Shown here: positions 11,461 through 22,561 of the stretch, piece by piece
Numbering within the stretch: the first letter of the stretch is position 1
How the letters are laid out: each line of letters opens with the position of its first letter
Assembly (NCBI GenBank): GCA_043800255.1
Contig: JAZDNF010000011.1
Coordinates: 1-24,820, forward strand
Direction: 5' to 3'
DNA length: 24,820 nt
Source of the DNA: Candidatus Altiarchaeota archaeon
GTDB lineage: Archaea > Altiarchaeota > Altiarchaeia > IMC4 > SCGC-AAA252-I15
Notes under the pieces: model-generated
Seen by the model: the letters and a program-made list of their open reading frames with translations, nothing else
Databases searched by the model: none
Told to the model about the DNA's origin: nothing
Made by a program: the position numbers and the translations under genes

Positions 11461-11513
11461 ATTAAGTAATAAATAGAGGCTAATAAAAAGTCCATTTATC
11501 CCAGATAAACAGA

Positions 11514-11647
11514 CGCCTCGGCAAGGACTTGAACCTTGGACCACCCGATTGCTGTGCCTTTTTTCCTGCTGTCCGATAGGACAGAGCGAGCCCCGTAAGG
11601 GGGGCGAGCGTAACAGTCGGGCGCTCTACCAACTGAGCTACCGAGGC
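11514..11647 (-). tRNA. tRNA-Asn(GTT) with canonical 37/38 intron (exons 11611-11647 and 11514-11549); CCA not encoded
   Basis: Minus strand reads GCCTCGGTAGCTCAGTTGGTAGAGCGCCCGACTGTTA | intron | ATCGGGTGGTCCAAGGTTCAAGTCCTTGCCGAGGCG. All four stems pair, and the discriminator is G73. Confidence 0.96.
11550..11610 (-). other. 61-nt tRNA intron with bulge-helix-bulge splice motif
   Basis: CUGU (32-35) pairs with intron ACAG, with 3-nt bulges UA|C and CA|A. Internal hairpins are CCCC-TTAC-GGGG and CTGTCC-TATC-GGACAG. Confidence 0.92.
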
Positions 11648-11773
11648 ATATTCTCTTTTGTCGGCACTTCTTTCCGCCAGCGCTTCACAGCCGACCTTTG
11701 GTCGGGTGTGTGCCAGACCCTCCGGGTCTGCCCATCTTCCTAAGAAAGGGCTGCAGACTGAGCTACCGAGGCA
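11632..11773. repeat. 17-bp exact direct repeat of the tRNA-Asn 5' end
   Basis: actgagctaccgaggca at 11632-11648 and 11757-11773, 125 bp apart. Confidence 0.95.
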
Positions 11774-20386: not shown

Positions 20387-20887
20387 ATGAACATATACCG
20401 TATTTTCTACAATCACAGGCACGACGAGATTGTTGTAAAAAGGGATAAGCTGCTGGACAGACTCCAGAAGAAGAGGTCGTTCACAGACGAAGACATTCTG
20501 GAGATAATGAAATTCAAGGGAGTAGGCCCGAAGGAGGACTACAAGAACGTTAACTCCATGAGGGTGACGTCTGAAGCTTTCATCGAGCCTGACCTTAACA
20601 AGAAGATGATGATACTCCGCAGGCTCAGGGGAGTCGGCATGGTAATGGCCTCCGCGATACTGTCGTTCCAGAACCCCTACGAGTACGCAATCATAGACAC
20701 CCCCACATGGAATCTTCTCGTGAGAAGGTTCGGATTCAACGCAGATGAGAAGAAAGGCGTCGACTACTCCGTAAAGGAGTATCAGAATTACATGCAGGAG
20801 ATCAAGGCGATTGCAAACGAGTACGGGATGAAACCCGTAGATGTTGAGCTGACACTATACCTGATAGACAAAAAAAGGATACAATGA
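20387..20887 (+). CDS. Helix-hairpin-helix protein, HhH-GPD DNA-glycosylase-like
   Basis: LRRLRGVGMVMASAIL followed by P-x2-YAIID and a C-terminal VELTLY. Confidence 0.7.
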   Translation: MNIYRIFYNHRHDEIVVKRDKLLDRLQKKRSFTDEDILEIMKFKGVGPKEDYKNVNSMRVTSEAFIEPDLNKKMMILRRLRGVGMVMASAILSFQNPYEYAIIDTPTWNLLVRRFGFNADEKKGVDYSVKEYQNYMQEIKAIANEYGMKPVDVELTLYLIDKKRIQ

Positions 20888-21252
20888 GATTGCTCTACTT
20901 CCTGGTAATAGCATTCCTCATGTCACTGCTCGACATACTCTACACGTTCACGAACGTTAACATACTGAGAAAACACACCAGACACTGGAAGGACACTGAA
21001 TACAACCCTCTCGTAAGAAGCTCCTGGCACATCTTCGGATTCTTCGACGGCACCGTCATTGCGGGAGCGCTCACGCTTGCAGTGGTCCTGATACTATCAT
21101 ACATGATAGGAGAGGACGAATTCCTCCAGGGTTTTGTCATCGGGATCTTCGTGATAGTCCACCACTACCATTACATAAACTACGCCTACATCAGGCAGAA
21201 GTACCTGAACAAGAAGTCGAGCCTGGTGGAAAGGATACTGTCAAATATCTAG
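20884..21252 (+). CDS. Small integral membrane protein (about 3 TM; DUF5658-like D-x2-YT...E-x-NP)
   Basis: Hydrophobic segments and the LDILYT...EYNPL pattern; ATGA overlap with the upstream gene. Confidence 0.75.
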   Translation: MRLLYFLVIAFLMSLLDILYTFTNVNILRKHTRHWKDTEYNPLVRSSWHIFGFFDGTVIAGALTLAVVLILSYMIGEDEFLQGFVIGIFVIVHHYHYINYAYIRQKYLNKKSSLVERILSNI

Positions 21253-21256
21253 TTTG

Positions 21257-21372
21257 GAGGGAGGTCGTTACGTTTTACGTTAGCGTCCCTTCCTATGCGA
21301 TGCATTCACTGTTAGACTCCTGCATCCACCAAGGGCAAAGTTAAATTATGTTGTTGCGTCCGACTCTCCCTC
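21257..21372 (-). ncRNA. Candidate unclassified structured ncRNA (~116 nt)
   Basis: Ends pair (GAGGGAGAGTCG / CGACCTCCCTC). Inner stems are CCCTT/AAGGG and GATGCA/TGCATC. A BRE/TATA-like ACAAGGTTTTATAC sits about 21-28 nt upstream on the minus strand. Confidence 0.5.
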
Positions 21373-21469
21373 GTTATAACATCCGAATAAGAGTATAAAA
21401 CCTTGTCTATTGAGCGGTAGAAAAGTAATAAAACCGGTGCTTAAATTGCGCCCTTCGAATATATACCAT

Positions 21470-22561
21470 ATGAATTACGGAACGATGTTTTTCATGTTCC
21501 TGATAGCGTCGTCAAGCGCCTCAGCCTGGAACATCTACACGCAGGAGCACATATGCGAGAAGGCTGTTGAGCAGATATGGAACACAGCTGTGGCAGACAA
21601 CTGCCTGCCGAGGATGAACTCCAAATTCATAGAAACTATCTGCAGGGAAGTGTACGAGGTCAAGGGACCAGACTATTATAACAGCTGCATGAACCTGGTG
21701 AACGACAAAACATTCCTGCATCCATCGGAGATACCGCCGACACTCTTCAAGGACACAACGTTGCACTATGACTACTCCAGCTGCCCTGCCGCGCCTGGGC
21801 CAACGCTCAGGATGCTGTGCGGGAACAGGGACGATCATCCGGCATCAGACCTTGCTGAGGTGTGGTTCAAGAGGGCCGAGCAGGCGAATGAGATATGCCT
21901 GAGAGTGTATGACTTCTGCATTGGAGCCCACTATTATGCTGACTCCGAAAACCCGCTGAACCAGATGAAGAACGTGAGGGAGAGGGACTGCAAAGCCCCG
22001 CTGATGAACATGGTGGACGACCGCCTCAGAGCCAACGACGACAACTGGCAGGCCTCAAAAAGGTGTAGGTTCGAAGGCGTCGAGTACGAGCAGACTCTGA
22101 GCATAACGGACGAGAGGATCACGAACATAATAGCCGCGCTCTACGAGAGGGGCGTCAACCTGTCGGAGCTGAGCTTCAAGCAGCAGAGCAAGGTCGTGCT
22201 GCTCGCGAATTCGATAGACTTCGACCTGGGCTTCAACTTTTACAATTATCTTCTGACTAGGAACGTTGACATCGTCCGCTCCACTGCAGAGGAATTCCTG
22301 GCATACCAGTACAGCCCATACGTGATAATACTTGGCGGCCAGAACGCCCCCGAAGGCGTTGGAGAGGTTGTGAGGACGGTCTTGACCAATGAAGAACAGG
22401 AGAACCTCATAGCCTCGCCGGTTAACACGATAGCGGCAGAGAAGGGTGACGTGTGGAAGCTGGGCCAGAAGGTCTGGGTGCTCGCAGGATACGACAGGTT
22501 CCTCACCCAGAACGTCTCAGAATCCAACCGAGAGCTGGTTTACAAGCAGATAAGAGCATGA
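21470..22561 (+). CDS. Secreted protein: degenerate Zn-dependent phospholipase C/P1-nuclease-like domain plus C-terminal S-layer/cell-surface-type domain
   Basis: Signal peptide ...SASA|W, motif HYYAD-x3-PLN, many Cys, and a C-terminal LANSID...VIILGGQNAPEGVG...VLAGYDR. Start placed at ATG 21470. Confidence 0.7.
   Translation: MNYGTMFFMFLIASSSASAWNIYTQEHICEKAVEQIWNTAVADNCLPRMNSKFIETICREVYEVKGPDYYNSCMNLVNDKTFLHPSEIPPTLFKDTTLHYDYSSCPAAPGPTLRMLCGNRDDHPASDLAEVWFKRAEQANEICLRVYDFCIGAHYYADSENPLNQMKNVRERDCKAPLMNMVDDRLRANDDNWQASKRCRFEGVEYEQTLSITDERITNIIAALYERGVNLSELSFKQQSKVVLLANSIDFDLGFNFYNYLLTRNVDIVRSTAEEFLAYQYSPYVIILGGQNAPEGVGEVVRTVLTNEEQENLIASPVNTIAAEKGDVWKLGQKVWVLAGYDRFLTQNVSESNRELVYKQIRA

Follow-up and report, generated by a model that had tools for sequence, protein, structure and literature searches.

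A predicted stand-alone structured RNA outside the described RNA families is a single-copy core gene of one uncultivated Altiarchaeota family

The window analyzed here (i.e., the whole stretch of DNA, 24,820 bases in length) is predicted to carry, on its minus strand from 21372 to approximately 21257, a single-copy, independent gene encoding a structured non-coding RNA with its own TATA-type promoter at 21393-21400. The RNA lies outside every described RNA family and is a core gene of one uncultivated family of Altiarchaeota. A sequence-only reading had previously proposed a novel stand-alone RNA with its own promoter on this strand, a proposal that is borne out by homologs whose helices covary, by an A/T box upstream of 20/20 family members, by single-copy occurrence and by the lack of any Rfam match. 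The window corresponds to one entire contig (C12) of a draft genome (1.75 Mb, 17 contigs, 93% complete), and the element lies inside a 217-base gap (21253-21469) separating two plus-strand genes. Upstream is a gene for a 122-residue membrane-type protein (20884-21252), with the hairpin beginning 5 nt past its stop codon, and on the other side is a gene for a 363-residue protein with a hydrophobic N-terminus (gene B, 21470-22561); neither protein has a Pfam family. Gene B belongs to a multi-copy family, with five matches in its own genome and one to six in each of 20 relatives.

The overall shape of the RNA is a single long irregular hairpin composed of a closing helix (P1), a large asymmetric internal loop, a second helix (P2), a purine-rich bulge and a third helix (P3) with a variable tip. 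All parts are given on the minus strand, where RNA position i corresponds to window coordinate 21373 - i. The body of the RNA, counted between the outermost bases of the closing helix, spans 21257-21372 (116 nt), as delimited by the fold, by full-length covariance-model matches in 19 other genomes and by covariation. P1, which is found both in the minimum-free-energy fold and by covariation, joins a 5' strand (21361-21372) to a 3' strand (21257-21267) through 7 bp (21366-21372 with 21257-21263), a bulged A at 21365 and a further 4 bp (21361-21364 with 21264-21267). The internal loop is formed by a 5' unpaired strand (J5, 21336-21360, 25 nt), with the consensus CAACA and then UAAC just before P2, and a 3' unpaired strand (J3, 21268-21286, 19 nt), which has the family consensus UUAA..CG and here reads CGUAAAACG. 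The inner hairpin (21287-21335) consists of P2 (21331-21335 with 21287-21291, 5 bp), the purine bulge (21292-21294) on the 3' side between P3 and P2, P3 (21321-21329 with 21295-21304, nine pairs and one bulge) and an apical loop of 16 nt (21305-21320). The stems, loops, TATA-like box and motif sites (gcgtcc on the plus strand at 21356-21361 and 21283-21288) described by the sequence-only reading are all present, and its stems are the same as those of the minimum-free-energy fold of the minus strand (-35.5 kcal/mol, z -2.87, 2/200 shuffles as stable). The plus strand folds at least as stably (-36.9 kcal/mol, z -3.58, 0/200 shuffles), so that folding alone shows an inverted repeat and cannot name the strand.

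Homologs were identified using covariance models. A BLAST search with the 191-nt region against 40 relatives returned short matches only (E 0.02-1), which were insufficient alone, and three of these weak matches later proved to lie inside true homologs. A first covariance model was built from the minus-strand sequence alone, with 25 base pairs chosen conservatively, and matched over the full length in 5 of 48 further genomes from the order (24.8-40.8 bits); three of these matches lay at the sites of weak BLAST matches. A second model of six sequences, run with strict filters on 61 genomes of the phylum, found matches in 13, and a third model of 13 sequences was run on sets of up to 40 genomes. 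With this third model, a match was obtained in 18 of the 21 genomes of the window's own family (f1), one copy each and including 5/5 high-quality genomes; the three genomes with no match are 84%, 85% and 57% complete. Matches were also obtained in two sister families, namely in the single genome of f4 (G023, 70.5 bits) and in one of two genomes of f3 (G027, 83.5 bits), the second of which gave a weak score of 22.4 bits. The third model had no match in 22 genomes of f5 (one hit of 21.5 bits, E 0.09), in the one genome each of f2, f6 and f7 (the latter a one-contig genome), in four genomes of f8 or in eight of f9, where absence denotes no match with these models, whose E-values are rough. In sister family f5, 11 loci around the Lhr-type helicase gene were searched for a diverged copy with filters off; scores reached at most 16.8 bits, and the two best-scoring hits fell inside the helicase reading frame. 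As the genomes are draft metagenome bins of related organisms, these counts are not independent. The span between the ends of P1 is 116 nt in the window copy and 102-125 nt in its relatives.

The predicted structure was then compared with the pattern of substitutions in an alignment of 21 rows (20 members and one weak row) fitted to the covariance model. In this alignment, 89.2% of 502 cells were paired and 23 of 25 pairs changed on both sides, giving a covariation score of 0.607 versus 0.196 in shuffles (0/500 as high) and no more than 0.122 with slid partners; alignments from earlier rounds agree on covariation. Within P1, the 7-bp part was 95.9% paired and the 4-bp part 85.2%, with 9 of 11 pairs changing on both sides. 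P2 was 99% paired with all five pairs covarying, and P3 was 79.5% paired with all nine pairs covarying. RNAalifold applied to a model-free MAFFT alignment of 18 members recovered P1, P2 and part of P3, and 13 of the 16 pairs were compensated. These patterns indicate that the RNA structure is maintained by selection.

Conservation extends beyond the helices. CAACA in J5 is the most conserved sequence among members, and the purine-rich 5' side of P1 is conserved, as is the purine bulge on the 3' side between P3 and P2, which is of the GGGG or GAUG type. The length of J5 is 24-27 nt in 20/20 members and that of J3 is 19-22 nt in 19/20, with 16 nt in one. Variable parts include an insertion, differing in length, that separates the two segments of P1, and also the tip of P3, which carries GAG...RUGA in 11/20 members and is a plain hairpin in 9/20; GAG...RUGA can form tandem G.A pairs on a mini-helix of 2-3 bp, with no 3-nt bulge. 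A long-range pair between J5 and the purine bulge may exist at alignment columns 33 and 132 (window ~21356 and ~21293; CG 12, AU 3, UG 2, GU 1, UU 1), resting mostly on a two-clade split, and columns 32 and 133 are 85% paired with one pair type. Additional J5-J3 pairing occurs in many single-sequence folds with differing registers and is absent in the window's own copy.

Several finer features proposed from the window copy did not carry over to the family. The central bubble had been described as two-fold symmetric; the similarity of the two loop strands falls within that of composition-matched shuffles in 20/20 members (fractions 0.07-1.0). Each loop strand was also said to begin with a repeated GGACGC-(T)AAC motif, and this proved to be particular to this genome, with GGACGC unseen in the other alignment rows. 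Lastly, an alternative pairing suggested as a switch was paired in 66.7% of cases versus 65.7% in shuffles, of which 174/500 scored as high.

At the level of strains, five DNA runs from two studies contain parts of the stretch, whose sequence occurs in none of the runs recorded as RNA, a result that speaks neither for nor against a transcript. Groundwater metagenome contigs (two studies) cover the region at ~96.5% identity. A 2253-base metagenome contig spans 20700-21900 with 42 differences from the window. Those listed include 20 in the 553 coding bases before the element, one in the 116-base element and six in the 97-base spacer to gene B, none of the latter within 21393-21406. The sole listed change in the element, 21316 A>G, would by our reading of the loop turn a predicted apical-loop U.G into C-G; two differences of the contig are unlisted and could fall anywhere. 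Comparing the element with the spacer gives a Fisher p of 0.049 and with all other bases a p of 0.18, which is a weak hint of strain-level conservation of the element.

The strand was assigned from the region upstream of P1. A TATA-like box (TTTTATAC, 21393-21400, minus strand) is located 20 nt before the G that opens the closing stem, and directly upstream of this box is the purine-containing ACAAGG (21401-21406, minus strand), a possible BRE as read from the sequence. An A/T octamer (at least 7/8 A/T) starting 36 to 25 nt upstream of P1 is present on the sense strand in 20/20 members and on the opposite strand in 6/20, which identifies the minus strand as that of the RNA; the balance of G.U and A.C cells in the helices (21 vs 16) did not decide the strand by itself. 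A pyrimidine precedes the stem's first G in most members, and we infer a transcription start at or beside 21372 (G). At the other end, P1 is followed by AC(N) in 15/20 members, including ACA in 6, as counted by eye with a register shift of 2-3 nt allowed in five rows; the window copy reads CAAAC. T-runs are found downstream of P1 at variable distances, that of the window being only three T long, and the 3' end of the RNA is probably a little beyond 21257.

Other sequence elements were observed close to the RNA. In the spacer between its promoter and gene B, ATAAAACC occurs twice, 33 nt apart (21395-21402 and 21428-21435, plus strand), the first copy corresponding to the RNA's TATA-like box on the reverse complement side, and a further TTAAATT (21441-21447) would be consistent with leaderless initiation at the ATG of 21470. 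At one locus in a relative (L071, G017), a T/A-rich hairpin of the CTTTCTTT...AAAGAAAG type and then GTGTTTCAT are found ~20-80 nt downstream of the RNA, after which comes a same-strand tRNA containing an intron (161 nt, 48.8 bits). A similar T/A-rich hairpin with GTGTTTCAT is present at another locus (L058, G016) beside what is, by sequence alone, a tRNA-like gene.

No known RNA class accounts for the element. At the gathering score, the sole Rfam match in the whole window was a tRNA at 11514-11647; with E up to 10, four matches were obtained around the element, all at chance level only, one of them a Tetrahymena snoRNA (E 6.2) off the element's center. A search of the 20 members against 4227 Rfam families with E up to 5 gave zero matches at the RNA. 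The sequence-only reading had seen no signature of tRNA, 5S, SRP or RNase P RNA and no C/D boxes, and in agreement with this the family models for tRNA, 5S rRNA, SRP RNA and RNase P RNA give no match at the element, ARAGORN with default settings reports no tRNA over the window, and the 20-member alignment holds no C/D boxes. The genome's own 5S rRNA (77.7 bits), SRP RNA (132.4 bits) and RNase P RNA (98.4 bits) are located elsewhere, on contigs C16, C15 and C4, respectively. A MITE, or another mobile repeat, was likewise rejected, as the element has a single copy in its own 1.75-Mb genome (the remaining hits are 14-19 nt with E above 1), occurs once per genome in 18/21 family genomes, and is flanked by TTTG and GTTA, which form no target-site duplication. 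At the level of titles and listings, the literature yielded no description of this RNA, nor of any structured non-coding RNA from Altiarchaeota, and a word search in one preprint (10.64898/2026.10.21.760802) gave 0 occurrences of Altiarchaeota.

The tRNA of the window (11512-11648, minus strand) is itself unusual in length (134-137 nt, with a long insert; Rfam 59.4 bits) and was missed by default ARAGORN. With intron search enabled, ARAGORN predicted 36 tRNA genes in the whole genome, 30 of them longer than 100 nt. A few of these predictions (831, 1193, 306 and 254 nt) are probably false, and tRNAs with long introns appear to be the norm in this organism.

The genomic surroundings of the RNA differ from locus to locus. 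In the window, the element sits at a break in gene order: orthologs of the flanking genes are not adjacent in any relative examined, in the nearest genus the stop of the 122-residue gene has a different reading frame starting only a few bases away, and orthologs of gene B are preceded by other genes in relatives. The element was not found beside orthologs of either flanking gene in relatives. It was absent after the stop of the upstream-gene orthologs in six relatives and four metagenome contigs, and a protein-anchored search with the upstream gene gave two genome-contig loci and four metagenome-contig loci, none bearing the element. Neighboring genes vary by genus, with no consistent neighbor. 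In genus g2, these are an Lhr-type helicase and a dCTP-deaminase-like gene; g3 and g5 have neighboring reading frames of the g2 type, as recognized by sequence, and reading frames near the RNA in g9 and g10 are presumably queC/D/E, an assignment made from sequence alone. Neighbors at other loci include M48 peptidase, TIM-barrel, PhoU, CBS and TPD proteins. The window's next gene downstream of the RNA (in the minus-strand sense) converges on it, and the nearest downstream ORF is likewise convergent at no fewer than 4 of 12 other loci examined, which argues for a trans-acting product and not a leader. A riboswitch or cis-regulatory leader was rejected, as no constant, related gene follows on the same strand and the neighbors are unrelated across genera.

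As possible functions, the sequence-only reading had put forward a dimeric-protein scaffold, a dual guide and an RNA resembling bacterial 6S RNA. Following the exclusion of alternatives, our first-ranked reading is a trans-acting protein platform with the internal loop as its working site, a proposal that we regard as evenly balanced between right and wrong. The RNA would act in trans, independently of neighboring genes, with its helices as a scaffold; the working surface would be formed by the purine bulge together with the internal loop of constant length. This surface would most likely bind one or more proteins, producing a small ribonucleoprotein, and the tandem G.A pairs that are frequent at the variable tip could recruit an L7Ae-type protein. 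There is no constant neighbor or partner gene at the RNA loci, so the protein platform rests on exclusion and not on positive evidence.

Among the competing explanations, a guide RNA survives best, and we consider it unlikely. Such an RNA would pair its loop strands with rRNA, tRNA or mRNA and direct modification or regulation, the closest form being an oversized, H/ACA-like pseudouridylation guide. Consistent with this are the hairpin with its large internal loop, the tandem G.A pairs near the tip (11/20 members), the single-stranded AC(N) directly after the basal helix (15/20, ACA in 6, by eye) and the conservation of the loop sequences, as for guide sequences. A search of the genome for H/ACA proteins found Nop10 (69.3 bits) and a match to Gar1 below the cut-off (16.8 bits), from which the H/ACA machinery may exist in this genome. 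However, the ACA box of H/ACA RNAs is found ~14-16 nt from the top of the pocket, and here 28-37 nt lie between the loop's top and the point where the basal helix ends in all 20 members. Moreover, the AC tail is missing in the window's own copy, and the GA motif, which lacks a 3-nt bulge, does not occur at all in 9/20 members.

Searches for rRNA targets lend a guide no support. These used four relatives with both the RNA and rRNA genes, the window's genome being without assembled 16S or 23S rRNA. Duplex energies of the loop strands with same-genome 16S and 23S rRNA in the four genomes were no better than those of shuffled strands, and a bipartite, H/ACA-type search gave 0-7 hits per rRNA, compared with 0-7 for shuffled guides. 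Two alignment columns were hit in two genomes each and were not kept in the others, and no bipartite target site common to all four genomes was found. The window's own genome contains two perfect 12-mers complementing the loop strands, where ~3 are expected by chance (an estimate). As a separate observation, the 16S rRNA match of G023 (L093) spans 1646 nt versus 1484-1489 nt in three relatives, which suggests an insertion or intron in this rRNA.

A catalytic or ligand-sensing RNA, in which the internal loop and purine bulge would constitute an active site or pocket and the helices would hold the shape, appears more doubtful still. Approximately 30 conserved nucleotides are concentrated in fixed-length junctions, flanked by covarying helices and a variable peripheral stem, and conserved junctions of fixed length between covarying helices are typical of ribozymes and aptamers. 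The one possible long-range pair, from the 5' loop strand to the purine bulge (columns 33/132), would suit such a fold, but it depends largely on the split between two clades. In addition, no known ribozyme or riboswitch family matches, and the RNA is not positioned upstream of a gene that it could control.

It is improbable to a yet higher degree that the RNA is a decoy for RNA polymerase or a transcription factor, similar to 6S RNA, whose A/U-rich loop strands would mimic opened or TATA-like promoter DNA and hold back part of the transcription machinery. Such a decoy shares the outline of a closing stem, central loop and terminal hairpin, and both loop strands are indeed A/U-rich with TATA-like runs in what is a single-copy core gene. 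Conversely, none of the 20 members matches the Rfam 6S family at E up to 5, the RNA has 102-125 nt in contrast to ~180 nt for bacterial 6S RNA, and its loop is conserved in sequence, unlike 6S RNAs, which retain shape better than sequence. We know of no archaeal equivalent of 6S RNA.

Finally, a non-RNA origin, either as an inverted repeat acting at the DNA level (a mobile-element remnant or a protein-binding site) or as the 3' end or terminator of the plus-strand gene stopping at 21252, is barely credible: the slightly better fold of the plus strand, the start of the hairpin 5 nt beyond that stop and the location where gene order departs from relatives would fit, but a mobile element would not be expected as a single copy in the genome, and once each in 18/21 family genomes beside unrelated neighbors, compensatory changes in 23/25 pairs are unexpected for a protein-binding DNA repeat, and for a gene end, conservation of the promoter-like box is confined to the minus-strand side and the orthologs of the upstream gene (six relatives, four metagenome contigs) have no element after their stop.

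Returning to the trans-acting platform, a wider and more tentative possibility is that the RNA represents a previously undescribed class of archaeal housekeeping RNA. It could be the RNA subunit of a yet undescribed ribonucleoprotein, or a ribozyme, which would have originated within a single branch of the Altiarchaeota and persisted as a core gene present once per genome, with a loop of fixed geometry unlike those of known archaeal guide, scaffold or catalytic RNAs. To our knowledge, few structured non-coding RNAs of archaea have been described other than those found universally and the guides of the C/D and H/ACA types. Single-copy retention in nearly all family members, with compensatory change maintaining the helices and with fixed loop lengths, very likely implies a central role. 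The Altiarchaeota are an uncultivated subsurface lineage, and the RNA offers a concrete object for finding a new RNA-protein machine, with a predicted 5' end, a structure model and 20 natural variants. Its recovery also illustrates that a covariance model made from a single sequence can retrieve a family missed by BLAST and gene order.

In comparison with known systems, the outline of the RNA most resembles that of an oversized, single-hairpin H/ACA RNA and, more loosely, those of 6S, Y or C/D RNAs. For each of H/ACA, 6S and C/D RNAs, a defining feature that was tested is lacking, and neither sequence nor Rfam comparison relates it to Y RNA; we therefore file the RNA under no known family. Like archaeal box H/ACA sRNAs, it is predicted to be a stand-alone gene with its own promoter and has a hairpin whose basal and upper helices are separated by a large internal loop (here supported by covariation), G.A pairs towards the tip (11/20) and AC(N) after the basal helix (15/20; ACA in 6). 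Unlike them, it has loop strands of 24-27 and ~19-22 nt and 28-37 nt from the loop top to the basal end, i.e., roughly twice the usual spacing. Its GA motif does not include the K-turn's 3-nt bulge, and 9/20 members have plain hairpins in its place. The window copy also lacks an AC tail, the rRNA searches gave no target, and no H/ACA family of Rfam matches.

With bacterial 6S RNA, the RNA shares a closing stem, a central unpaired region, a terminal hairpin and the character of a single-copy, housekeeping-type gene, whereas it is about two thirds the size, archaeal, conserved in its loop sequence and without an Rfam 6S match. Archaeal box C/D sRNAs likewise are small and stand-alone, and their two unpaired strands are placed between terminal and internal structured motifs with G.A pairs. 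In these RNAs, C/C' (RUGAUGA) and D/D' (CUGA) boxes flank guides of 12 nt; here, in contrast, no conserved C (RUGAUGA) or D (CUGA) box is present in the 20-member alignment, the unpaired strands are approximately twice that guide spacing, and the two strands are no more alike than chance. Y RNA and related ribonucleoprotein scaffolds built from a stem and an internal loop differ in sequence and in Rfam assignment, and they share with this RNA the pairing of both ends into a long basal stem, a large loop with conserved sequence and a presumed role as a protein platform.
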